53,836 nt of DNA from Candidatus Proteinoplasmatales archaeon SG8-5 (GTDB taxonomy: Archaea > Thermoplasmatota > Thermoplasmata > SG8-5), in NCBI GenBank assembly GCA_001595885.1, contig LSSH01000059.1, positions 1 to 53,836 on the forward strand. Reading direction: 5' to 3'. Below the pieces are notes generated by a model. It was not told the origin of the DNA. It did no database searches and worked only from the letters and a program-made list of their open reading frames with translations. Position 1 is the stretch's first letter. The number at the start of each line of letters is the position of its first letter. The translations under genes and the position numbers were made by a program. Shown here piece by piece: positions 13,235 to 31,861 of the stretch.

Positions 13235-13546
13235 AGGCTAGGCTAACCGGGGGGGTCGGCGTCCCCTTATACACCGAAATCGTCGTTAGCGGGGGTGACG
13301 GCCGAGTGCGGCGTAACTGGCCTGTTGGCGGTCCTTATCACGACGATGAGGTTCTGTCCCATGGGGCTGGAGGTGACATTCGCGTGCAGCCGGAGGGCGG
13401 CACGGCTTGTCTTGGTTACGGGGATCGGGTCAGGCCCTGACGGGAGCAGCCTTACCGTTTACTACCAACGCTCATGGGGTTGCGGGACCGAGAAGGGGTA
13501 AGACTCCCGCCAGGAGGTGCAGGCGACAAGCTCGGTGCCTAGCACA
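13235..13546 (+). ncRNA. ffs: Signal recognition particle RNA (archaeal 7S RNA)
   Basis: 5' GGCTAGGCTAACCGGGGGGGTCGGCGTCCCC (Alu-domain start). Helix-8 motif GGTCAGGCCCTGACGGGAGCAGCC, compare E. coli 4.5S GGUCAGGUCCGGAAGGAAGCAGCC. The 5' GCTAGGC (13237-13243) pairs with 3' GCCTAGC (13537-13543). TTTTATGG box at 13208-13215 and an oligo-T (GCATTTTAC) just downstream. Confidence 0.85.
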
Positions 13547-14671: not shown

Positions 14672-15064
14672 TAGTCGCAGATGTTCTCCAGCGTGGGTTG
14701 TGATGTCATTCCCTGTTTGCCCACCCAGCGGTCACACCTGCCGTGTTGCGCAGGCACCAATCCCAATTTACAGGCCATTGCCGTTCACCAGCTTCGGATT
14801 GAAGGGCTATTATATCAATTTTGGCCTGTTTTCTATTTTCATGGGAAATGACTAAATATAGAAAGATTTATATTATAAACTATAATCCAATGCCAGAATT
14901 AATGGCTGAGTTGTTAATGGAAAGGGGGTGTTTGAACCAGATATAAAACCACCGTCGGAACCATCGCTGTTCTTATTGTAATATTCTCGATTATATTCGT
15001 CAGCTCGGCTCCCGCGTCCGCCCAGACCTCGACGCCGCTTACCGTCAGAGAACGGTACGAGGCC

Positions 15065-16207
15065 ATGGCCTTCGGTGCCGGACATCTGGTAATACCAATG
15101 GACGAGAAGCAGAACGACACCATATTAGCTTTCGGCGTCATCCATGCTCTGCTGAGGAACGGGACCATCTGCTACAGGCTCATCGGACCGCCTGCCCATA
15201 ATATCAAGACCCTTGACTATCCGGACGGCGTCAATTACTCTGGCGGACCCGTCGTGATAATGGACGTGAATGTCACTGTACTGAACGGCATCCAAGAGGT
15301 CTTTCCGAGCGTGACCGTCCATAATATCACCGGGACATTTGTGTCCAGGACCGTGTACAAGATCGATCGGCCTACTAGGATCCTGTTGCTGGCCAGAGAA
15401 GGGGCTGCGTTCCAGCACAGCCTATCAAAGATACTCCTGGACCAGATGCACATCCCCTATTCTGTTAAAATCATCTGGGCCTTAGAACCCACGGTGGACC
15501 TTTTCGAGAACGACCTGATAATTATTGAGGACCCGGGCGCGAAGGGCCTGTACTTCACAGGGAAGGGACACATCAAGAATGCGGTCGCCAATGGCCATAA
15601 CTTCGTGTTCATCGGTGATGCCATTAAGGATTTGACCGGGGTGTTCCCGCTACTGGTAACTGTGAAGGAAGGCGAGAGGGGCGAAGCCTACACCGCGACA
15701 TATTATCACACGGGCGAGTCGATATCCCAATATAGCGGGCCCGAACAATTATACGTTACAACCAGCAGGACCGTGGCAATAACGCCTACAAACCCGGGCT
15801 TCCAAACCATGCTGTATGCGCAGAGCGGAGATTCCCAGATCATATTCTCAGGGTATTACAGGTACGGAAAGGGCACTGTGGAGTTATTCTCGTTCGAGCC
15901 GGACGAGCAAGTAGGCGACATGTACACCCTGGCATGCATATTCTACGGTAACAGGTTCGTCCAGGCAGCTCCTGAGCCGCTCCCGCCGCCTTTGCCCTTG
16001 GTTTCCGGCGGAGTGCCCCTGCCCACGGGCACTGTCCCTCCACCGCCTCCGCCTCCGCCACCGCCGCCGCCGTCGATACCGATGGCGACGACCATTCCCG
16101 CGCAGTACCTGTTCGCAGGCTTCGCGGGCGTGGCCCTGGGCGACAGGCTCAGGTCAAGGGTGAGGCCGAAGATCGCAATCAGACATAAGATCAAGATCAG
16201 TACATGA
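15065..16207 (+). CDS. Exported or anchored protein of unknown function, with a P12 linker and a C-terminal hydrophobic anchor. The coordinates start at the first ATG, but the true N-terminus is probably upstream.
   Basis: 380-aa ORF. The in-frame upstream codons (14936-15064) encode a textbook signal peptide, KTTVGTIAVLIVIFSIIFVSSAPASA|Q, but contain no ATG, GTG or TTG. C-terminal tail: PPPPPPPPPPPPSIPMATTIPAQYLFAGFAGVALG, then basic residues. Confidence 0.65.
   Translation: MAFGAGHLVIPMDEKQNDTILAFGVIHALLRNGTICYRLIGPPAHNIKTLDYPDGVNYSGGPVVIMDVNVTVLNGIQEVFPSVTVHNITGTFVSRTVYKIDRPTRILLLAREGAAFQHSLSKILLDQMHIPYSVKIIWALEPTVDLFENDLIIIEDPGAKGLYFTGKGHIKNAVANGHNFVFIGDAIKDLTGVFPLLVTVKEGERGEAYTATYYHTGESISQYSGPEQLYVTTSRTVAITPTNPGFQTMLYAQSGDSQIIFSGYYRYGKGTVELFSFEPDEQVGDMYTLACIFYGNRFVQAAPEPLPPPLPLVSGGVPLPTGTVPPPPPPPPPPPPSIPMATTIPAQYLFAGFAGVALGDRLRSRVRPKIAIRHKIKIST
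16037..16072 (+). repeat. (CCN)12 tract encoding twelve consecutive prolines
   Basis: cct cca ccg cct ccg cct ccg cca ccg ccg ccg ccg, in frame with the 15065 ORF. Confidence 0.95.
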
Positions 16208-16216
16208 GGTTGGACC

Positions 16217-17227
16217 ATGAAGACGCTCAGCATCGCTTTCATCACTTGGCTCGTCGTTCTCGGTGCATTATCATTACCACTAAATCAGTCTTCTAACGCC
16301 CAGCAGACCATCGGCTGGCAATATGAAACGTTCGGCGAGAACCTGGAGATGACTATCACGCCAGAGATTCCCACCACAGAAGACCCGATCATGGTGGAGG
16401 TGGTCTCAATTTTCCCGGACGTATACGTTCAGGTGGCCAACTTCTACGCACGAGTAACGCCCAACAACGGCCATGAGTTCCAGTTCCAGACTATCTTCCA
16501 GCGATGGAACAACTCCGCTATGAGGGTGTCCGTGGGCCCCTTCCCGTACAACGGATATACCATCTCCATGTATGTCATCGCATACGACTGGTTGAACATA
16601 CCGATGGACTCGCGAGACACGTTCAACTACATCGAGTTCGAGGTGGGGGGCAGCGGCTGGAAGCACGATACGTTCGACGCCAACGTGGAGGTCGAATATT
16701 CCCCCATGACGGTCAATGCGACAGAGGAGGTGACGGTGACAATCTCTTCCAAGGACAACATCACCTTCGGGGGGGCAAACCTCTGGTGGACTTACGAGAC
16801 TCCCGAGGGAGACCTCATCGAGGGGGTGGGGGAAAACTTCACCAAGGTCAATCCCGAGGTCACTGTCATGAAGCAGACCATACCCGGTTATCCGCCCGGC
16901 ACCAACCTGACGTTCTGGGTCGTTGCCTGGGACACCTACAATGAGGTAATGGTATCCAAGGAGTACAACTATAGTGTGCTGGGCCTGGTCCAATACACGG
17001 ATTTCCCCTTCATCTACACTGATGACGATGACCGCTCCGAGTGGGAGCCAGACTTCTCGATATTGGCACCCATGGTAATTCTGTGTGCCGTGGGCGTTCC
17101 CCTTTACCTGTACCTTTACGTCTTGACCAGGAAAAGGGAGGGAAGGCGCGAAACCCTGGTTATGTCCAATGACAGTCAGGCTGCTGCCCCTGAAGAAAAA
17201 GAGGAGGGTGATGAAGATGGAGACTAG
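16217..17227 (+). CDS. Secreted, membrane-anchored glycoprotein-like protein of unknown function (two Ig-like repeats)
   Basis: Signal peptide MKTLSIAFITWLVVLGALSLPLNQSSNA|Q, several N-x-S/T sequons, two similar beta-rich modules, a C-terminal TM segment (ILAPMVILCAVGVPLYLYLYVL) and an acidic tail. Confidence 0.6.
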   Translation: MKTLSIAFITWLVVLGALSLPLNQSSNAQQTIGWQYETFGENLEMTITPEIPTTEDPIMVEVVSIFPDVYVQVANFYARVTPNNGHEFQFQTIFQRWNNSAMRVSVGPFPYNGYTISMYVIAYDWLNIPMDSRDTFNYIEFEVGGSGWKHDTFDANVEVEYSPMTVNATEEVTVTISSKDNITFGGANLWWTYETPEGDLIEGVGENFTKVNPEVTVMKQTIPGYPPGTNLTFWVVAWDTYNEVMVSKEYNYSVLGLVQYTDFPFIYTDDDDRSEWEPDFSILAPMVILCAVGVPLYLYLYVLTRKREGRRETLVMSNDSQAAAPEEKEEGDEDGD

Positions 17228-19868
17228 CCTCCGAACCAACATCGGAAGCATTAACAAGTACTTCATCGAAACGGTCGAAGAAGAGCGCCGTTATCCGAAG
17301 TTACTGACGCCGTTAATGTTCTTCATACTGGCCACGGTGGGGCTGGTCTGGATACCCTTTTACCCCGCCTGGATGGCCCTGATATTGGCCGTTGTCGTGG
17401 GCCTGATATCGTTCAGGTTCCCGTTCCTTTCCATTATCGTGCTCAGTGTTTTTATAACGGCTGCGGCCGCGTATCAGACCCCGGAGTTCGGCCTCTTCAT
17501 GCTGCTTTTCCTGCTCGTCGTATTGATAATATCGCTGTTCGAGTGGAGGCTCGGATACCTGGTCCTGCTCACCATTTCCCTTTCACGGTTCGGCCTATCA
17601 CTGGCCGTGCCGTTGATCGCCGCGGCATTGCTGCCGGTATTGGTGTCCATCACCGCTGTTGTCCTTTCAGGTGCGTTTCTGTGGTTCCTAGTGACCTGCG
17701 GGAACCTTAACTCGATCGGCATGTTCGTCGGCTCTGCGCACACCAGCAGCTTCATGGTTTTCTATGAGCCCGTTGCCGGCAACTTCGCACCCTCAGACGT
17801 CGGTATTGTACTGATGAACATACAGAATGCCGACCTGGACGCAATGGCTCAGGTCGTCGGCGACAACTTCGGCACCTCAGTTGTCCCGCTGTTGCAGATC
17901 ATACTTTGGGGCCTGGCCGTCTATCTCGTGTTCAGGTTCTACAACCGCGACTCGGTGGGCACGGACTATCCCGCAGTGATGGCGTTCGTGCCTTCTGCGA
18001 TCGTGTCCGCGTCCTTCTTGGGCGCTTACATTTTCGAGCTGGATTATGGCACGGGCGGCCTGATGGCGGGAGCGCTCCTGTTCGGCGTGGTGTTCGTTTC
18101 CATAATCATTGCCAGGGTGGCGAAGGAGTTCTTCGCCCCCTACTTTGCGAGTCTGGAGATCGAGACTGGCGTTGGCACCCGCATCTCTGACATGGAAGAC
18201 CTAGGTGAGACGAGCTTCGAGCTGATAGGGGGGCTGGAGGACGTCAAGGAGGACGTGAAGGAATCGATAGTGGTCCCGCTTCTGATGAGCGATGTCGCCG
18301 AAAGATACGGCATTGAACCTCCCAAGGGAATCCTTCTGTTCGGCCCTCCCGGTTGCGGAAAGACGTTGCTCATGAAGGCGCTGGCCAACGAGCTTAATGT
18401 CGAGATGTTGACCGTGAAATGCTCGGATATCATGTCAAAATGGTACGGGGAGAGCGAGGGCAAGGTCGCCGAGTTGTTCAGAGTGGCGAAGGAAAGGAGG
18501 CCATGCATCATATTCTTCGACGACCTCGAGGCCATGGCGAAGCACAGGGACCTCTATGCCGGCGATGACGTCACACCGAGGCTTCTGAGCATCATTCTTG
18601 CTGAGTTGGACGGCATGGACCGCTCATCCGGCATCATCCTGGTCGGGACCACAAACAAACCAGAGATGATCGACCCCGCGCTGTTGAGGCCGGGAAGGTT
18701 CGACAAGGTCATCTACGTTCCGCCGCCGGACATACAGGAGAGGATCGCCATCCTGAAGGTCCACCTTGCCAGCAGGCCCCTGGCGAGGAACATAAATCTA
18801 AAACTCATAGCAGCCAAATGCGAGAGGTTCTCCGGCGCAGACCTGGCAAACCTGGCACGGGAAGGGGCGACATTGGCCATGAAACGGGCGCTTCAGACTC
18901 AGAAGGACACGGTAATAACCAACGAGGACCTGAACAAGGTCGCGGTGACGATAAGGCCGAGCATCACCCTGGCCATGCTCGAGAACTACGAGCTCCTGAA
19001 GCTGGATTTCGAAAGGAAGATGCATCATGTTCGCCGCGAGGACCGGCGATTCGCCGTCGGCTGGGGAGACGTGGGCGGCATGGACCGCCTGAAGAAGGAC
19101 ATCAAGGATTACATCGAGCTGTTGATCAAGGAGCCGAAGGTGCTCGAGGACTTCAGGTTGAAGACGGGGCGGGGCATGCTCCTGTTCGGTCCCCCGGGAT
19201 GCGGAAAGAAGCACGTCATGCGGGCGGCCGCCAATGACCTGGGCGTGCCCATCCAGGAGCTCAGTGCGGCTGAACTCGTTGGCGGTGCTACAGACACCGG
19301 TCAGACCATAAAAGAGATATTCTACAGGGCGAGGGAGAGCACGCCGTCCGTCATTCTCATTTCCGAGATCGACGTTATCGGTTCCAGGGAGGCGATCGAG
19401 GACAAGGGCGCCGGCCAGGCCATTTCCCAGATACTCGCCGAGATAGATGACGTGGAGGCGAGGGAGCATATTTTGGTCATCGCAACGACGAATCGGCCGC
19501 AGGTGCTGCACCCCAGCTTGTTGAGGCCCGGCCGCTTTGACAAGATGTTCCACGTGCCCCCTCCGGACAAGAAGGCGAGGGCCAAGATATTCGGCATATA
19601 CCTGAGGAACATCCCCAGGAACAAGGATGTGGACGCGTCGTTCCTGGCTGCCCTGGCCGAGAAGACCGACGGCTTCAGCAGCGCCGACATCGCGGCGATA
19701 GTGGATGAGGCGAAGCTCATGGCCGTGATCAATTGTCAGGATGCTTCGACCCGTGCCGTTTCGCGCAACGACCTGCTGAACGCCCTGAATAGGGTAGAGG
19801 GGTCGATATCGCCTGAGGACCTTGACTCCTCCGCCAACTTCATGAAGACCTACAAGGTGAGGGATTGA
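17211..19868 (+). CDS. Polytopic-membrane tandem AAA+ ATPase (Cdc48-like D1-D2 fused to an N-terminal multi-TM domain)
   Basis: About 8 predicted TM helices (about 17300-18130). D1 has GPPGCGKT (18342-18365), IIFFDDLE and RPGRFD. D2 has GPPGCGKK (19188-19211), VILISEID and RPGRFD. ATG at 17211 follows GAGGAGGGTG and overlaps the end of the previous gene. Confidence 0.85.
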   Translation: MKMETSLRTNIGSINKYFIETVEEERRYPKLLTPLMFFILATVGLVWIPFYPAWMALILAVVVGLISFRFPFLSIIVLSVFITAAAAYQTPEFGLFMLLFLLVVLIISLFEWRLGYLVLLTISLSRFGLSLAVPLIAAALLPVLVSITAVVLSGAFLWFLVTCGNLNSIGMFVGSAHTSSFMVFYEPVAGNFAPSDVGIVLMNIQNADLDAMAQVVGDNFGTSVVPLLQIILWGLAVYLVFRFYNRDSVGTDYPAVMAFVPSAIVSASFLGAYIFELDYGTGGLMAGALLFGVVFVSIIIARVAKEFFAPYFASLEIETGVGTRISDMEDLGETSFELIGGLEDVKEDVKESIVVPLLMSDVAERYGIEPPKGILLFGPPGCGKTLLMKALANELNVEMLTVKCSDIMSKWYGESEGKVAELFRVAKERRPCIIFFDDLEAMAKHRDLYAGDDVTPRLLSIILAELDGMDRSSGIILVGTTNKPEMIDPALLRPGRFDKVIYVPPPDIQERIAILKVHLASRPLARNINLKLIAAKCERFSGADLANLAREGATLAMKRALQTQKDTVITNEDLNKVAVTIRPSITLAMLENYELLKLDFERKMHHVRREDRRFAVGWGDVGGMDRLKKDIKDYIELLIKEPKVLEDFRLKTGRGMLLFGPPGCGKKHVMRAAANDLGVPIQELSAAELVGGATDTGQTIKEIFYRARESTPSVILISEIDVIGSREAIEDKGAGQAISQILAEIDDVEAREHILVIATTNRPQVLHPSLLRPGRFDKMFHVPPPDKKARAKIFGIYLRNIPRNKDVDASFLAALAEKTDGFSSADIAAIVDEAKLMAVINCQDASTRAVSRNDLLNALNRVEGSISPEDLDSSANFMKTYKVRD

Positions 19869-20197
19869 GGCCCATCGATTGGATCGTCATTATTGCCGCG
19901 GTCGCGTACGTCGCACTGGCAGCCTTTTCAGTTAAGTTCCCCCGAGGCCGTGAGAATTGGCAAAGGGACAGAGTCGAGACCCTTTACCTGGTCATGAGCG
20001 CGACCGTGTTCCTGATGCTCCTTTTCTTACTCTGGTACGTGTCCGCGGTAATCGATTGGCCTGACGTGTTGACCATCATTGTCTGGTCCGGCGTCATCGT
20101 TCTCGTCATGCTGGTGCTCATAAGCATATTCATTCCCAGGGGCATACGCCTCACTTTCCCCGACAAGAGGAAGAATCCGTCGGAAGAGGAAGAATGA
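19865..20197 (+). CDS. Small three-TM membrane protein, translationally coupled to the AAA+ gene
   Basis: TTG start at 19865 overlaps the AAA+ TGA stop (aTTGA). The sequence is hydrophobic with an acidic tail (PSEEEE). Confidence 0.55.
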   Translation: MRPIDWIVIIAAVAYVALAAFSVKFPRGRENWQRDRVETLYLVMSATVFLMLLFLLWYVSAVIDWPDVLTIIVWSGVIVLVMLVLISIFIPRGIRLTFPDKRKNPSEEEE

Positions 20198-20323: not shown

Positions 20324-21265
20324 GTGATCATCGAAAAGTATCGGGCCAAGAGCCTGGTCAGGGAGCAGAAGAACTCGACCGCCGTCCACCTAAACCCGTA
20401 CCAGGGATGCTATCATGATTGCGTGTACTGCGACGGTAAGGCAGAGAATTACCACATGCATGAGGACTTCGGAACCCGCATACGTGTGAAGGAGAACGCT
20501 CCCGAACTCCTTGAGGAATACCTGCGCAAGCGAGGGTTCCTGCCCGTTAACAGGGATAGGACCGGGACACTTGCAGATTACACCGGCGAAAAGGCCCATA
20601 TCCACAATGCCGGTGGAGAGCGCTTCACAATCGGCATTTCGGGTGGCGTGTGCGATATCTATCAGCCGGCAGAGGAAGAGGTGCGGATGTCGCGGCAGAT
20701 GCTTCAGATGGTGTATGATTACGGTTTCCCAGTTTTCCTGTTGACGAAGAACAAGCTGGTGCTCAGGGACCTGGACCTGCTGAAGAGGATCAACGATTTC
20801 GCCGGTGCAACGGTCTGCCTGACCGTCGTGTTCTCGGTCGAGAACGAACATCTCCGCGAGATTTTCGAGCCGCGTGCCAGCACCATTTCAGAGCGTTTCC
20901 AGGCTTTGGAAATACTGCACAATGCCGGTATAAATACGGGAATCTGGATGTTGCCTATCCTGCCGTGGATAGGTGATGACGATGACAACCTCGAGTCCAT
21001 GGTCAAGAGCGCTGCGGAGGCTTGTGTCCAATTCATCCTCCCGGGCGGTATGACGCTTAAACCGGGCAGGCAAAAAAGGCAGTTCTTAGGCGTGATCGGG
21101 GAGTATTTTCCAGAGCTCTTGGACAAGTATGCCAGGTTGTTCGGCAACGACCACAGGTACGGGCATATGGATGAAGCGGTCGTAAAGGAGTTCGGCATCT
21201 TCGATTGGTATCCCAAGATGGAGCGCCTTTGTGGGAAATACAATGTGCGGATGGAAAGTTGGTAG
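20324..21265 (+). CDS. Radical SAM protein (SplB / 'DNA repair photolyase' COG1533-like)
   Basis: NPYQGCYHDCVYCDG (CxxxCxxC). GTG start lies about 26 nt downstream of CTTATATT (20295-20302). Confidence 0.7.
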   Translation: MIIEKYRAKSLVREQKNSTAVHLNPYQGCYHDCVYCDGKAENYHMHEDFGTRIRVKENAPELLEEYLRKRGFLPVNRDRTGTLADYTGEKAHIHNAGGERFTIGISGGVCDIYQPAEEEVRMSRQMLQMVYDYGFPVFLLTKNKLVLRDLDLLKRINDFAGATVCLTVVFSVENEHLREIFEPRASTISERFQALEILHNAGINTGIWMLPILPWIGDDDDNLESMVKSAAEACVQFILPGGMTLKPGRQKRQFLGVIGEYFPELLDKYARLFGNDHRYGHMDEAVVKEFGIFDWYPKMERLCGKYNVRMESW

Positions 21266-21705: not shown

Positions 21706-23172
<1,467 letters not shown>

Positions 23173-26523: not shown

Positions 26524-27771
26524 ATGCAAGAGAGCATATTCAAAGAGTATCTGAACACAAAGTCCATATTCAAAAAGGACAGGGAGGTCTTACGCCCGTC
26601 ATACATACCAGAGAAGCTCTTGCACCGTGACGCCCAAATCGATCAGATAGCTAGTATTTTATCTACCGCCCTTAAGGGCGAGCGCCCCTCAAATATCCTC
26701 ATTTTCGGCAAGACGGGTACCGGCAAGACAGCGACGGCAAAATATATCGGTAAAGAAATTACGAAGGCCACTCATGACCTACCAACGCCGTTCAAGGATA
26801 TCAGGTACATCTACATCAACTGTGAGGTTGTTGACACCCAATATGGCGTCCTGCAGAACATAGGCAACCGCTTCATCGAGGACTTTGACGAACGCATCCC
26901 GCCGACAGGTTGGTCAACGGAGAGGGTTTACAACATACTGTGGGAGAAGATAGATAATTCCCCCAAGGTAGTGGTGGTCGTTCTGGATGAGATAGACAGG
27001 TTCGTCTACAAGAGCGGAGACGACACCCTCTATCATCTAACTAAGATAAACGACGACCTGGACAATGCCAAGATCAGCATCATCGGCATATCGAACGACC
27101 TCAAGTTCACGGAACTTCTGGACCCCCGGGTCCGAAGTCGCCTCAGCGACGAGAAGATTGTGTTCCCGCCGTACGACGCTGACCAGCTCAAGGACATACT
27201 GTGGCAGAGGGCCGGAATGGCATTCGAGGACGGCATCATCGACGAAAGCGTAATATCCCTGTGCGCGGCCGTGGAAGCCCACGAGCACGGCGACGCAAGG
27301 CGCGCCCTGGACCTGCTCAGGGTTGCTGCGGAGACTGCCGAGAGGGGCAGGGACGACAACATCAGCGAGCAGCACGTTGTCAAGGCCAAGAACAAGATCG
27401 AACTCGACTGTGTGATCGAAGCGGTCAAAACCCTGCCGATACAATCCAAACTCGTTCTTTTGGGCATCCTGCTCGGGGAAGAGAACGGCAATTCAAGGCA
27501 AACCACCGGCGATGTATACGGGGCTTACAAGGAATTGGCCAAGAAATCCGGAACAAGTCTGCTAACCCAAAGACGGGTCGCCGACCTGATATCGGAGATG
27601 GACATGATGGGCCTGGTCAGCGCCCGGGTCAAGTCGTTCGGCCGCGGGGGCCGCACAAGGGAGATACAGCTGAGCGTACCGCTGATGGAGACAAAAAGGA
27701 TACTGGAAAAGGACCCGTCGCTTGAGCCAATTAAGAATCATAAGCTGAAGTATCAGAGCACACTAATCTGA
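26524..27771 (+). CDS. cdc6: Orc1/Cdc6 replication initiator
   Basis: LRPSYIPEKLLHRDAQIDQIASIL, Walker A FGKTGTGKTA, Walker B VVVVLDEID, and a C-terminal winged helix. The ORF-track start at 26422 adds a non-homologous leader. ATG at 26524 follows GGGGGAGG. Confidence 0.92.
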   Translation: MQESIFKEYLNTKSIFKKDREVLRPSYIPEKLLHRDAQIDQIASILSTALKGERPSNILIFGKTGTGKTATAKYIGKEITKATHDLPTPFKDIRYIYINCEVVDTQYGVLQNIGNRFIEDFDERIPPTGWSTERVYNILWEKIDNSPKVVVVVLDEIDRFVYKSGDDTLYHLTKINDDLDNAKISIIGISNDLKFTELLDPRVRSRLSDEKIVFPPYDADQLKDILWQRAGMAFEDGIIDESVISLCAAVEAHEHGDARRALDLLRVAAETAERGRDDNISEQHVVKAKNKIELDCVIEAVKTLPIQSKLVLLGILLGEENGNSRQTTGDVYGAYKELAKKSGTSLLTQRRVADLISEMDMMGLVSARVKSFGRGGRTREIQLSVPLMETKRILEKDPSLEPIKNHKLKYQSTLI

Positions 27772-28806
27772 GTTTCTGGGCGGGTCTTCGGCCACATCTT
27801 CAGAAATACCAACTTCATCATTCTCGGGTTCAGGGCTCCCTTCTGCATTTTGTGATTCCTGCTTGGCCGTCTTGTCGGGCTCCTTGGTTACCCCTTCTCT
27901 GTGTCTCGGTGTCTCCTCATTCGCCGTATCAGGCCCCTCTACTTCTCCGCCATCCTGAACGTCCTTACTATCTTTAACAAACAACCGCTTCCTTACACGG
28001 GGCCATCCGTAATCAAGGAAGATGGGTATGCTGATGATAATGATAATTACGGCAAAAAGACTTATCCAGCTGTTGCCAGGAGCGTCAACCGGATGGTCCG
28101 TAATCGACAGTTTGATGAGTCCGAACCACGGCAACTCGCCAATCGCCTTCCCGACGATCCACTCCTCCTTAACGGGGAGATAGGTCAACTGGTCGATGTT
28201 CGGGTTGTTATCTCCAAGGGTTATGTAACCGCTGTGCGGCTCCATTCGATGCAAATAGAAATTCCGAATAACCGTGGTCAGATTGATTGAAACGCTCTTA
28301 TGCGAATATCCGTAGTTATTAAGGATGACATTCTCTCTGCTCCCATATAATCCCAGGGAAGGGATGTCATACGAATAATTGCCATAATCAATACTGTTGC
28401 CCACTATTGGCGAGGCGTTTGAATTATTTACTTCTACCCAGACCAACAAACGATGTATAATTGGAACCCTTTCACGCAGCCCGTCAGGTCTATAGATGAC
28501 CACATCTCCGAACGAGCCGTATCTGCGGTACCCCGTAGCTTCCCCGTCCATGTATGACATCAGACCGTCGCTTCCTTCCACGTCCTTGACGAAGACCATG
28601 TCCCCGGTGTCTATCACGCCTATATAGCTCTTCCTTACACCCGGTGAGGGGGGATGCTCCATGCTCCCGGATTCAACGACCACCATGGGCGGCCAGACCC
28701 GGCAGTATGCATACAGGATAAGCATGACCAACAGGACCACGAAAAAGGCGAGCATCAGGTCTCGGGCAATACTAATCAGTAACCGCTTCATCTTCCTCTT
28801 GTCCAT
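27763..28806 (-). CDS. Signal peptidase I, archaeal/ER (Sec11) type, with a large insertion, a C-terminal TM segment and an acidic tail
   Basis: Box B VESGSMEH, box C GDMVFV, box D PIIHR (His instead of Lys) and box E ITLGDNNPNID. Confidence 0.7.
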   Translation of the reverse strand: MDKRKMKRLLISIARDLMLAFFVVLLVMLILYAYCRVWPPMVVVESGSMEHPPSPGVRKSYIGVIDTGDMVFVKDVEGSDGLMSYMDGEATGYRRYGSFGDVVIYRPDGLRERVPIIHRLLVWVEVNNSNASPIVGNSIDYGNYSYDIPSLGLYGSRENVILNNYGYSHKSVSINLTTVIRNFYLHRMEPHSGYITLGDNNPNIDQLTYLPVKEEWIVGKAIGELPWFGLIKLSITDHPVDAPGNSWISLFAVIIIIISIPIFLDYGWPRVRKRLFVKDSKDVQDGGEVEGPDTANEETPRHREGVTKEPDKTAKQESQNAEGSPEPENDEVGISEDVAEDPPRNSD

Positions 28807-28930
28807 GGTTAGGCTCCGTGTCGGGGTGCGTAAATTGGTTTTATATAAATATCCTTTTCTTCGCCCTCATTATCTGGCCGAAGACCCGACATAAAAACCC
28901 TTAAGTAATCACTGTTTCATAGCTGTATTG

Positions 28931-31861
28931 ATGGTGGGCGTATACAAATCCGGACCTAAGATATCCGTTATTATCATGACCGTTGTCCTAATTATTACAT
29001 TTATTACGGTCCCTGGATATCTGAAGGCCGACGAGAGCAATGAAGGATCTAAAATCCCAACGAACCAACCTCCTCAACCGTCCCAGACCGACCGGACCTT
29101 TGAGATATCGTCCTTAATCTTAAGGTCAGATGACGCGTTGGTTGGGAAGCACATTCAAAACCTCCAGGATTTCGAGACAAGATACTCATATCGTCCGGAT
29201 AAATGCGACAAGGCGGCCGAATATATATACCAGGTCTTCGACTCCAACGGCCTCAATGCCTCATACGATGATTTTGTATTCAACCACTTTGAGATGCGAA
29301 ACGTCATCGGCGAACTCCGCGGCACGGCCTACCCCGATTCCATCTACATCATATGCGCCCATTACGACTCGACCGGCACAATGCCCTGGGGCTTCGCCCC
29401 GGGCGCGGACGACAACGGCAGCGGTACAGCCGCCGTTCTTGCCGCGGCAGAGCTCCTTTCGGACTACGAGTTCAATCACACGATTAGGTTCATTGCCTTT
29501 TCGGGAGAAGAGCAGGGTCTTACTGGAAGCGGACACTATGCAAGCGTGGTCAAAGGCGAGGCTCAGAACATATCCGGAGTATTGAACCTCGATATGATAG
29601 CATACAATCCCGAACCAGCGTCAGTTGACGTTCGAATCAGACACAACGCCCCGTCTACCAGCCTGGCAAATTACATTAATAACGTATCGCAAAAATACCA
29701 GTCAATCAACTCAATAACCGCCACGGCCGTTCTGGACGGAACCACCAACAGCGATCACGCGTCCTTCTGGCCGGAGTACGAAGCCATTCAATTTTTCGAA
29801 AGACAGTTCAATACCCCACACTATCATTCGTCCACTGACATCATAGACAATTGTAATTTGACATATTCAGCCAATTGCACTCAAATCGCCATCGCCTCAC
29901 TTGCAGAGTTGGCCGGGCTCATCGGCACCGACACCTCGCCGCCCGCGCTTTCACCGGGATTCCCGCCGCCAAACGGTTTTGGAAAACCCGACCCGATAAT
30001 CTCAATCGAAATTACAGATCCCGCGCCGCTCAATATCTCAACGATGGAAATGCAGGTGGACGGCCTTCAAGTCGTTCCCAATCAGGAAATCATACCACTG
30101 GGTTTGAATCTGACCTACGATACGCCCCTGACATATCCGGATGGCGCGATCGTGAATGTGAGCATATTTGTGGAGGACATACACGGCAATGGAATCAATT
30201 ACTCCTGGGTCTTCATGATAGATGGTATCGCACCTCAGCCGCCATCAAACCCCGCGATATCTGTGACCCGCATTGAGGCGGTCAAACAGGGGCTGGTCAT
30301 CGACTCGAATACTACCGGGGTCGACGACAGATATGCTTGGGCGCCTTCGGTGATATTTCACGATAATGAATATAAGATGTGGTATTCTGCCCGGAGTCAA
30401 ACGAACTTCCACATTGCCTATGCAAACTCGACAGACGGTCTGAATTGGAACAAGTATGGGGTTGTGATTGCGCAAGGAACCTCAGGCGAGCCCGATTCAG
30501 GTCGAGCGCTTTATCCTACCGTTATATTTGATAACGGGGAATACACGATGTGGTATTCAGCGTATGACTCATCACATTACCGTATCATGTATGCGAACTC
30601 AACGGACGGCCTGTCTTGGACAAAACAAAGCATAGTCCTCGATAACGGCGGAATCAGCCAATATGATACCTACAACGCTTATATGCCCTCCGTAATAAAA
30701 ACTAACGAATACGAGATGTGGTATACAGGAACAAACGGTCGAGGCGACTGGCTGTTATATGCCAACTCTACAGACGGCATTAACTGGAATAAATGGCCAG
30801 AACCGGTAATGACAAAAGAATCAGACCTGCGGTATTCAAAAGGCCGCATCTGTTTTAGTACTGTTGCGTATGATGGCGAATATCATATGTGGTATTCAGG
30901 TTTTGACGGGTCCAGGCATAGGACCTTATACGCCAATTCATCAAACGGTATATATTGGGAAAGGCTAGGCCTGGCCGTCAATACAGGCATCAATGGGGAA
31001 AACGATTTCCTCCAGGCGATGTGGTGCTCAGCGATCATAACACCGAACGAAACAAAACTTTGGTACTCGGGATATGCGGGGGACGGTAAATATAGAATTT
31101 TATATGCTAACATAAGCATGGCAGATTACCAAACCGGCCTGGAGGTCAACTGGGCGCCGTCAACGTCAACCGACATCCTCCACTATGAGATATGCCGCGC
31201 CAACAGCCTATCTGGACTTACTCCCTGGGTAACATATCTGATAATGAATGACACGGCCTTCGTCGAGAACGGGATCGGAGATGAGGATGATAACAATTAT
31301 TACTATAGAATAAGGTCCGTGGACAAGGTGGGCCAGTATTCCGAATGTCCGCAAATCGTTGGCAAGATCGGCAACAACGCCGCCCAAGGTTGGAACCTCG
31401 TGGGCAACCCATTCATTGAGGGGAACTCGACCCTTGCCGGCCCGCTCAGTACAGTCGACTGGAACGCTGCCATGATATATGATATCTACGACCCCGCCCA
31501 CCCATGGAAAAGCAACCACACCGACAGGCCCCCGCAACTCAACACGCTGGGTTATGTGAATCAAACAACGGGAATTTGGATAAACGTAGTCGCACCGGAA
31601 AGTTACACATCCACCGGAACCGTCACGAACATATCAATATATCTTCTAGAGGGTTGGAACCTGGTTGCATACCCGCATCATGACGTCAAGATAGTGAGTC
31701 AAGCGCTGACAGGACTCCCATATGACATTGTGGAGAGATTCAACCCGGCCGCGCCGTATTACATATCGACAATGGGAGCGACCGACCCGATGTATCCAGG
31801 GTACTCATACTGGATACACATGACGTCTGCCGCAGTCTGGTTTGCCGTCAACGAATTGTAA
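28931..31861 (+). CDS. Secreted multidomain protein: M28 Zn-aminopeptidase, Ig-like domain, five-bladed beta-propeller repeats, FN3 and a C-terminal domain
   Basis: Signal/anchor segment ISVIIMTVVLIITFITVPG. M28 ligand blocks AHYDS, GADDNGSG, FSGEEQGL, LDMIA and SDHASF. Five repeats of the form PSVI..gEY.MWYS....Y.I.YANStDG..W (about 30320-31117). FN3-like YYYRIRSVDKVGQYSE. Confidence 0.75.
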   Translation: MVGVYKSGPKISVIIMTVVLIITFITVPGYLKADESNEGSKIPTNQPPQPSQTDRTFEISSLILRSDDALVGKHIQNLQDFETRYSYRPDKCDKAAEYIYQVFDSNGLNASYDDFVFNHFEMRNVIGELRGTAYPDSIYIICAHYDSTGTMPWGFAPGADDNGSGTAAVLAAAELLSDYEFNHTIRFIAFSGEEQGLTGSGHYASVVKGEAQNISGVLNLDMIAYNPEPASVDVRIRHNAPSTSLANYINNVSQKYQSINSITATAVLDGTTNSDHASFWPEYEAIQFFERQFNTPHYHSSTDIIDNCNLTYSANCTQIAIASLAELAGLIGTDTSPPALSPGFPPPNGFGKPDPIISIEITDPAPLNISTMEMQVDGLQVVPNQEIIPLGLNLTYDTPLTYPDGAIVNVSIFVEDIHGNGINYSWVFMIDGIAPQPPSNPAISVTRIEAVKQGLVIDSNTTGVDDRYAWAPSVIFHDNEYKMWYSARSQTNFHIAYANSTDGLNWNKYGVVIAQGTSGEPDSGRALYPTVIFDNGEYTMWYSAYDSSHYRIMYANSTDGLSWTKQSIVLDNGGISQYDTYNAYMPSVIKTNEYEMWYTGTNGRGDWLLYANSTDGINWNKWPEPVMTKESDLRYSKGRICFSTVAYDGEYHMWYSGFDGSRHRTLYANSSNGIYWERLGLAVNTGINGENDFLQAMWCSAIITPNETKLWYSGYAGDGKYRILYANISMADYQTGLEVNWAPSTSTDILHYEICRANSLSGLTPWVTYLIMNDTAFVENGIGDEDDNNYYYRIRSVDKVGQYSECPQIVGKIGNNAAQGWNLVGNPFIEGNSTLAGPLSTVDWNAAMIYDIYDPAHPWKSNHTDRPPQLNTLGYVNQTTGIWINVVAPESYTSTGTVTNISIYLLEGWNLVAYPHHDVKIVSQALTGLPYDIVERFNPAAPYYISTMGATDPMYPGYSYWIHMTSAAVWFAVNEL

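Follow-up and report, generated by a model that had tools for sequence, protein, structure and literature searches.

Introduction

Known membrane AAA motors such as FtsH, Msp1, Bcs1, LonB and the archaeal membrane-bound AAA (MBA) proteins are held by one or two anchoring helices, and characterised classical AAA proteins all thread polypeptide through a central pore by way of an aromatic pore loop. Here we describe a four-gene module, g1 to g4, from Candidatus Proteinoplasmatales archaeon SG8-5, in which a classical AAA tandem is joined to a polytopic membrane domain (g3) and is encoded together with a stalked exported protein (g1), a membrane-anchored ectodomain protein (g2) and a small membrane protein (g4). 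The module lies on the forward strand of contig LSSH01000059.1 (assembly GCA_001595885.1), of which positions 1 to 53,836 were analysed; this stretch is referred to as the window. SG8-5 is an uncultured sediment lineage, and isotope probing showed that it breaks down detrital protein in marine sediment (PMC9123169).

Of the gene sets described so far, the one most like the module is the arCOG01314 (DUF4350)-vWA-MoxR complex, which is itself only predicted and for which a role in secretion or membrane remodelling was proposed (Makarova, Galperin, Koonin 2015, PMC5898192). It contains the same kinds of extracellular parts as the module, together with a different, soluble ATPase. These parts are an exported protein of flavodoxin/GldG-like fold with one C-terminal transmembrane (TM) helix, comparable to g1; secreted vWA proteins, comparable to giant adhesins and to the protein that substitutes for g1 in a clade of relatives; and membrane proteins with repeated extracellular modules, comparable to g2, all with an AAA+ ATPase in the operon (PMC5898192). 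The ATPase of that complex is a MoxR/COG0714 protein, whereas g3 is a membrane-embedded classical AAA protein, and the module in the window has no secreted vWA protein, which is present only in the clade with fused g2 and g3. In architecture and in its flavodoxin/GATase-like fold, with matches to the GH42 middle domain among others, g1 agrees with the arCOG01314 protein. Neither DUF4350 (PF14258) nor any other relevant Pfam family matched any of 10 g1 homologues at E <= 10; the likeness would therefore be at the level of fold only.

The module is a real, conserved and previously undescribed membrane AAA+ system restricted to Thermoplasmata. The database records for g2, g3 and g4 (KYK28622-KYK28624) are all named “hypothetical protein,” no record of a g1 product was found, and we found no published description of the module in the literature. 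A preliminary description, made from the DNA letters before any database search, could name no system that matched, and this judgment stands.

Results

Gene Order and Conservation of the Module

The four genes lie in the same direction at the place where the preliminary description had put them. Its spacing of the genes also holds: the gap between g1 and g2 is 9 nt (g1 stop TGA at 16205-16207, g2 ATG at 16217), g2 and g3 overlap by 17 nt if g3 starts at the ATG at 17211, and g3 and g4 overlap by 4 nt, with the g4 TTG lying across the TGA stop of g3. We scanned one genome per species for 185,579 species with a query alignment of six sequences and recovered 29 loci, all from metagenome-assembled genomes of Thermoplasmata or Methanomassiliicoccales (best identity 58%). 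Open reading frames (ORFs) were compared across these 29 loci and across contigs fetched by protein look-up. Co-occurrence of the genes in relatives had been set beforehand as the test of the module, and the same order with tight junctions was found in all assessable loci: g1-g2-g3-g4 occurs in every locus of the split clade, to which the window belongs, whose ends allow assessment. Wherever the downstream end of a locus is present, g3 is immediately followed by a g4 orthologue, in most cases at a distance of 0-4 nt. The family is small. Only 31 proteins were found when the first 340 amino acids (aa) of g3 were compared with 1.84 billion cluster representatives, and a second, word-indexed protein search with an alignment returned the same six partial matches.

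In another set of relatives, the fused clade, the g2 ectodomain is part of the ATPase and forms its N-terminus (12 genomic loci and 13 representative proteins of 1,065-1,434 aa). In the comparison of ORFs, the ATPases of this clade measured 1,175-1,434 aa. These proteins consist of a g2-like ectodomain, a weak CarboxypepD_reg-like domain, a TM helix, a linker and the polytopic domain, in that order, and the separate g2 ectodomain of the window is homologous to their first ~260 aa (BLASTP down to 3e-23, phmmer 4e-27). The fusion thus identifies g2 and g3 as parts of one machine. In a third subclade (represented by P0019), g2 is again a separate upstream gene and a g4-like gene lies downstream.

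Some fused-clade ATPases (L019, L023, L030, L031; P0013 residues 1336-1367) carry a SAP motif (PF02037, 1.2e-4) at the C-terminus, behind a stretch of polyproline; such a motif, which may bind nucleic acids, is unexpected on a membrane AAA protein. On one metagenome contig (L001, 1168-3811), g3 is divided into two ORFs of 407 aa and 468 aa by a break within the first AAA domain, which is either a frameshift or an assembly artefact.

A Membrane AAA Protein With One Presumed Motor Domain

When read from the ATG at 17211, which has a GGAGG-like motif just upstream, g3 encodes 885 aa; alternative starts lie at 17169 (899 aa, as in the NCBI record) and 17217 (883 aa). The hydrophobic N-terminal third and the AAA tandem seen in the preliminary description were both recovered, with two Pfam AAA domains (7e-71) that comprise PF00004 twice and AAA_lid_3 twice; AAA_5 gave a weak P-loop match only. 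The first domain, D1 (18213..19010), matches Pfam AAA and AAA_lid_3 and has the D2 domains of VAT and p97 as its best PDB matches. It carries a Walker A motif GPPGCGKT (residues 378-385), a pore loop K410-W-Y-G413, a Walker B motif FFDD (D437-D438), a sensor-1 Asn and RPGR arginines. The second domain, D2 (19059..19865), is degenerate: its Walker A motif reads GPPGCGKK (residues 660-667), its Walker B motif ILISE (S718-E719), and it has no aromatic pore loop. Its C-terminus is weakly Vps4_C-like.

Conservation across 44 family members follows the same division. The GxxGCGKT motif and the pore loop S[KR]WYGESE of D1 are invariant, and the D1 Walker B motif ends in DE in most members and in DD in the clade of the window. 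An aromatic pore loop occurs in the D2 of none of them, and D2 is canonical only in 3 representatives and absent in 7. The preliminary description had proposed a double-ring unfoldase, and this part of it has to be given up, given the GKK and SE motifs of D2, its pore loop without an aromatic residue and its loss in some relatives. We therefore read g3 as a one-motor machine with a structural second ring.

The best solved relatives of both AAA domains are Cdc48/VAT/p97 (E 1e-123 for the whole protein, 9e-91 for D2 alone). g3 shares with them the tandem AAA arrangement, the classical lid and the arginine fingers, and its D1 pore loop is like the loop of p97 D2. It differs from them in having a polytopic membrane domain in place of the double-psi-barrel N-domain (residues 1-320 are helical), in having a pore loop in only one ring, and in the absence of an HbYX motif; in addition, both of its AAA domains resemble VAT D2, rather than VAT D1 and D2 in turn. 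The protein ends in KTYKVRD, and most relatives that have D2 end in Y-[KG]-x-R-x, with Tyr at -5. Of four features that mark members of the CDC48/VAT family, g3 has the tandem AAA domains and lacks the other three, namely the N-domain, HbYX and a sufficient score (447.4 bits against TIGR01243, cut-off 802.65). The match to TIGR01241 (FtsH) covers the AAA part only and reaches 395 bits (cut-off 600). Although CDC48, PAN and FtsH are its top families, g3 lies below the curated cut-offs of all three and of CdvC, no CDC48_N or CDC48_2 match was found in Pfam, and Peptidase_M41 is not among the Pfam matches listed. With these cut-offs not reached and no Cdc48 N-domain, protease or HbYX present, the ATPase does not fall into a well-characterised family with an unrelated role, an outcome that would have spoken against a new system.

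Archaeal Cdc48 members that activate the proteasome carry a C-terminal HbYX motif (PMC3493965), and we rejected a proteasome-docking Cdc48 paralogue since g3 has none. Like FtsH, the MBA proteins (Serek-Heuberger et al. 2009, cited in PMC3493965) and LonB, g3 would be a membrane-tethered AAA/AAA+ ring with its pore entry toward the bilayer and a presumed action on membrane proteins. FtsH and LonB have protease domains and two TM helices, whereas g3 has ~8-10 helices, two AAA domains, dedicated partner genes and no protease domain, and for this last reason an FtsH- or Lon-like protease was also rejected. The crenarchaeal MBA proteins are reported to combine one AAA domain with an N-domain that lies between two TM helices, and it is by this description only that the ~8-10 helices and two AAA domains of g3 set it apart from them. 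To our knowledge, no other classical AAA protein has both a polytopic membrane domain and a dedicated surface client encoded alongside. Among PADLOC models, the AAA domains of g3 match IetA and TRIP13; these are generic AAA matches, and an anti-phage defence system was rejected.

The Membrane Domain of g3

The membrane domain (17211..18170) has ~8-10 helices and a cytoplasmic N-terminus according to its AlphaFold2 model, charge distribution and alignment. The model, computed from a 20-sequence alignment, shows ~14 helices (predicted local distance difference test score, pLDDT, 86.6; predicted template modelling score, pTM, 0.84). Judged by charge counts, the N-terminus is inside, whereas an acidic loop at residues ~167-219, with 0 K/R, is outside; this topology is consistent with the fused architecture of ectodomain, TM helix, linker and polytopic domain. 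The domain carries the motifs WIPFYPxWM, AYQxPEFG and F[DE]W[KR]xG. The invariant residues of the alignment are P, F, Q and G, with no Cys, His, Ser, Asp or Arg among them, a pattern that does not suggest an enzymatic role.

No Pfam match was found for the membrane domain, and an alignment-profile search of PDB sequences returned nothing. Foldseek searches of PDB and BFVD gave no fold match either (best E 0.2, TM-scores <= 0.33 among the matches listed). In remote relatives (E about 5e-5), from a TACK archaeon, the domain is joined to a KaiC-type ATPase. Next to one such gene (P0033; L036, 8001-9674), a second KaiC-like gene precedes it and CdvA and Vps4 genes lie a few kb off; as a clue to function, this neighbourhood yielded nothing.

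The Stalked Protein g1 and Its Conserved C-Terminal Module

The body of g1 (15065..16207) encodes an exported head, a Pro-rich stalk, and a C-terminal anchor with a tail. Its orthologues are 33-63% identical. In the AlphaFold2 model the head (residues 40-345) is well predicted (pLDDT about 85-90) and consists of a glutamine-amidotransferase-like (GATase-like) alpha/beta domain and a beta domain. The top Foldseek matches are class I GATases, ThuA-like proteins and the GH42 middle domain (E 4e-8, probability 1.0). The likeness to class I glutamine amidotransferases is one of fold only, with an identity of 12-17% and without the catalytic Cys-His-Glu triad. There is no invariant Cys in an alignment of 10 g1 homologues, and the head is therefore taken to be non-catalytic.

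The head is followed by a Pro-rich linker and then by a run of twelve prolines (P12, 16037..16072; residues 368-379 of the 423-codon frame). Runs of 10-12 Pro are found in 19 of 21 g1 orthologues, 13 of which have exactly 12, and the mean pairwise identity of this block is 0.87. The remaining 44 residues (16073..16204) comprise a marginally hydrophobic segment, SIPMATTIPAQYLFAGFAGVALG, and then a basic tail, DRLRSRVRPKIAIRHKIKIST, which has 21 residues and a two-residue alternation. The number of residues after the proline run is again exactly 44 in 19 of the 21 orthologues, and conservation is higher in the last 45 residues than in the head (69% against 48% mean identity). The P12 stalk and C-terminal anchor of the preliminary description are thus present as a proline run followed by a hydrophobic and a basic segment, with the reservation that the anchor is only marginally hydrophobic: it falls below a Kyte-Doolittle threshold passed by every other TM segment. 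Such polarity would fit a position embedded in protein rather than exposed to lipid.

The anchor and tail are exclusive to the module. A degenerate DNA pattern for AQYLFAGFAG had four matches in 241 million metagenome records, and all four are g1 genes with g2 following them. No NCBIfam sorting-signal match was found in g1 at E <= 10, and neither g1 nor g2 nor g4 has a match in Pfam, NCBIfam or PADLOC.

Another protein of this kind is encoded just ahead of the ATPase in the fused clade, with a signal peptide, a vWA domain (PF00092, 6e-16), polyproline, a related anchor (..PMATT..PQ..YQALFAP..G.G) and a charged tail. The heads therefore appear to be interchangeable and the stalk-anchor-tail layout constant.

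The Ectodomain Protein g2 and the Small Membrane Protein g4

g2 (16217..17227) encodes 336 aa with a signal peptide, two modules, a TM segment (about 17048-17128) and an acidic cytoplasmic tail. The sequence agrees with the preliminary description in all these respects, including the N-glycosylation sequons, of which the ectodomain has 7 (N-X-S/T). The two modules (about 16304-16636 and 16637-16990) are beta-rich and form an internal repeat; BLASTP recognises them as homologous to each other with E 1e-4. The preliminary description proposed that they are Ig-like; they have no Pfam match and no match among PDB sequences, also when an alignment-profile search was used. Thus neither the g2 ectodomain nor the g3 membrane domain has a sequence relative among solved structures.

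g4 (19865..20197) encodes 110 aa with an acidic C-terminus. It has three hydrophobic segments, as expected for the three-TM protein that had been proposed.

The Start of g1, a Candidate Promoter and Neighbouring Genes

The frame of g1 extends 5' of its body through a signal peptide (14936..15064; ..KTTVGTIAVLIVIFSIIFVSSAPASA/QTS) that aligns with the N-termini of orthologues. This extension contains no ATG, GTG or TTG and is immediately preceded by a TGA at 14933-14935. The GTG at 14928, which the preliminary description took as the start, is in another frame and runs into a TAA at 14979. Positions 14840-15080 are identical in three assemblies, namely the window, an ENA assembly (L034) and a Logan assembly (L035). 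We therefore rejected a simple assembly error as the explanation; with two further assemblies carrying the same sequence, it is unlikely. A non-canonical start of g1 is possible. Judged by the reading frames, so is a -1 slip at A_AAA (14945-14948), which would join the frame opened by the GTG at 14928 to that of g1. Two short ORFs overlap the beginning of the signal-peptide frame, one of 14 codons at 14902-14946 (MAELLMERGCLNQI, then stop) and the GTG-started one of 17 codons at 14928-14981.

Upstream lies an A+T-rich element, TTTATATTATAAA (14866..14880, forward strand), which was read by eye and has a purine-rich stretch on its 5' side. It resembles the archaeal TATA consensus TTTAWATA and is likely to be the promoter of the module.

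Directly downstream of g4 is a radical-SAM gene of the PA0069/Rv2578c type (20324-21265) with its own TATA-like element; a T-rich stretch and this second element, again seen by eye, lie between the two genes. It is probably unrelated to the module, since it is kept beside it only in near-identical assemblies. The RNA genes identify the window as archaeal. An archaeal SRP RNA gene (13236-13544) lies among the upstream neighbours of the module, between two of them. There is also an archaeal small-subunit rRNA gene at 21706-23172; a match to large-subunit rRNA was found nowhere in the window.

Further along the window is a divergent pair of genes for a signal-peptidase-I-like protein (27763-28806, reverse strand) and a 977-aa exported M28 peptidase with a GH130-like region (28928-31861, forward strand). 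The former matches TIGR02228 below the cut-off (1.8e-6) and has no Pfam match. This pair immediately precedes g1 in 10 related genomes, but in the window it lies 7.5 kb from the module, on the far side of the 16S rRNA gene, and in other subclades it is not adjacent, so we did not adopt the two genes as parts of the module. Giant surface proteins flank the fused-clade module in 7 loci (L020, 8758-14742; L022, L023, L024, L028, L030 and L033). Their complete or longest copies have 1,765-1,995 aa, that of L020 with a vWA domain and about 12 Big_7 repeats, and they are without the C-terminal module of g1.

Discussion

What the preliminary description observed is partly confirmed by these analyses, and its interpretation is supported: the extraction, insertion or remodelling of envelope proteins remains the right class of hypothesis. 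Within this class we tentatively favour, at somewhat less than an even chance, the reading that g1 to g4 are subunits of one lineage-specific membrane machine of Thermoplasmata, an AAA+ translocase with its own dedicated stalked surface protein, which it would grip by the cytoplasmic tail. From the classical AAA membership of g3 we infer that it would form a ring, presumably a hexamer, with the polytopic domains in the membrane. D1 would be the ATP-driven motor that grips polypeptide, and D2 a degenerate structural ring. g2 would serve as the extracellular domain of the machine, encoded by a separate gene here and fused to g3 in many relatives, and g4 as a small membrane-integral subunit whose synthesis is coupled to that of g3 by the start/stop overlap. 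Because the membrane domain is N-terminal to D1, the pore entry of D1 should face the membrane, so that a protein exposing a cytoplasmic segment at the surface of the membrane would be the natural substrate. The g1 tail alone is co-encoded, conserved in length and exclusive to the module, and for this reason we propose it as the segment that the ring grips.

According to this proposal, the partner or client to which the machine is dedicated is g1, which would be exported by Sec and would carry its ligand-binding, non-catalytic head on a stiff rod of polyproline. The C-terminal segment of weak hydrophobicity would sit within the membrane assembly of g3 and g4, and the basic tail of 21 residues would reach the pore loops of D1. 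Hydrolysis of ATP would pull on this tail, so that force is transmitted to the head at the surface or the head is retracted or extracted; the outcome could be force transmission, retraction, shedding or turnover. Nothing in g3 indicates a hand-off to a protease, as it has neither a protease domain nor HbYX. The closest mechanistic analogue of the tail-gripping step, by functional reasoning only, may be Msp1/ATAD1, a membrane-anchored AAA protein that takes hold of C-terminally anchored proteins by a short cytosolic segment and extracts them from the bilayer. Msp1/ATAD1 differs in being eukaryotic, with one TM helix, one AAA ring, many clients and no operon-encoded partner.

Several points weigh against the tail-gripping proposal. 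The contact of the g1 tail with the pore is purely inferred. With DD in the D1 Walker B motif in the clade of the window and a degenerate D2, ATPase activity could be low or regulatory. Whereas the tail of g1 is basic, the vWA-headed proteins have longer tails that are in part acidic. The membrane domain also occurs on a KaiC-type ATPase, so its role need not involve stalked proteins, and the locus of that relative has no called gene resembling g1 or g2 (as judged by gene calls, not by sequence comparison). Finally, g1 in the window, without a canonical in-frame start, may be poorly expressed or a pseudogene beside intact g2, g3 and g4, and this would argue that g1 is dispensable.

In a more specific form of the proposal, which we consider unlikely as it stands, the module would transduce ATP-driven force across the membrane: the AAA+ ring would pull the tail, and the polyproline rod of fixed length would carry the pull to an interchangeable head, GATase-like or vWA. 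The analogy would be with TonB-ExbB-ExbD, in which a membrane-embedded motor, a rigid proline-rich rod and a distal binding domain outside the cytoplasmic membrane are likewise combined; that bacterial system is driven by the proton motive force and is unrelated in sequence and fold. If force transduction is true, a receptor or adhesin at the surface could be retracted, released or activated by the cell, and the module would be an archaeal counterpart of TonB- or integrin-type mechanical coupling built from unrelated parts, with a membrane fold unmatched in PDB and BFVD.

The classical AAA domain with its intact pore loop toward the membrane would also suit general membrane-protein quality control, with g3 as an FtsH/Msp1-like dislocase that extracts many damaged or mislocalised membrane proteins for cytosolic proteases and g1, g2 and g4 as adaptors or regulators rather than clients. 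PAN is absent from all Thermoplasmata, whose proteasome is served by Cdc48-type ATPases (PMC3493965), and g2-g3-g4 are kept where another protein replaces g1. However, g3 has no protease domain and no HbYX for docking to the proteasome, and a housekeeping factor would be expected to be widespread, whereas this family is rare (31 clusters among 1.84 billion; 29 of 185,579 species genomes). Upstream, moreover, there is always a gene for a stalked protein whose C-terminus is conserved in length and exclusive to the module, and we consider general quality control improbable. A role in secretion or surface assembly, in which surface proteins, among them the giant vWA/Big-repeat adhesins, are exported, inserted into the membrane or assembled with power from the ATPase, would bring the module close to the arCOG01314 complex, with whose predicted parts list it agrees (PMC5898192). 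The adhesin genes that flank the module in 7 loci and the signal-peptidase-I-like gene directly upstream in 10 point the same way. The pair of this gene with M28 is, however, detached in the window (27763-31861) and not adjacent in other subclades, and the adhesins have no C-terminal module of the g1 type. As g1, g2 and the adhesins all carry ordinary N-terminal signal peptides, Sec should be enough for their export, and classical AAA motors pull toward their C-terminal face, which here is the cytoplasm, not outward. We regard this role as distinctly unlikely.

Transmembrane signalling, by which a ligand at the g1/g2 ectodomain would act through the polytopic domain on the nucleotide state of the AAA domains and so on a cytoplasmic target, would account for the ligand-binding type of the heads (vWA, GATase-like) and for the fusion of extracellular modules to the ATPase. 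The degenerate D2 and the DD Walker B motif suggest slow, switch-like nucleotide handling, and a SAP motif ends some fused relatives. This tail is limited to one subclade, though, g3 of the window has no output domain, and an invariant, substrate-gripping D1 pore loop is unexpected for a pure switch, which makes signalling very doubtful. The tripartite C-terminus of g1 (motif, hydrophobic helix and basic cluster) and the polytopic membrane partner encoded beside it also recall C-terminal sorting as in PGF-CTERM/archaeosortase, with the g1 signal cleaved by the membrane domain of g3 as the enzyme and the peptide cleared by the AAA domains. No NCBIfam sorting domain was matched even at E <= 10, none of the invariant residues of the membrane domain is a Cys, His, Ser, Asp or Arg, and the motif is confined to a single protein of the module, unlike sorting signals, which are shared by many clients, so that sorting seems extremely improbable.

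The module defines three families without a match in Pfam, NCBIfam, PADLOC or PDB, namely the g3 membrane domain, the g2 module and g4. It also provides a clean test case for the recognition of a specific tail by an AAA pore. If the model of a translocase that grips the tail of its stalked partner holds, it would show how archaea with a simple envelope couple cytoplasmic ATP to events at the cell surface.

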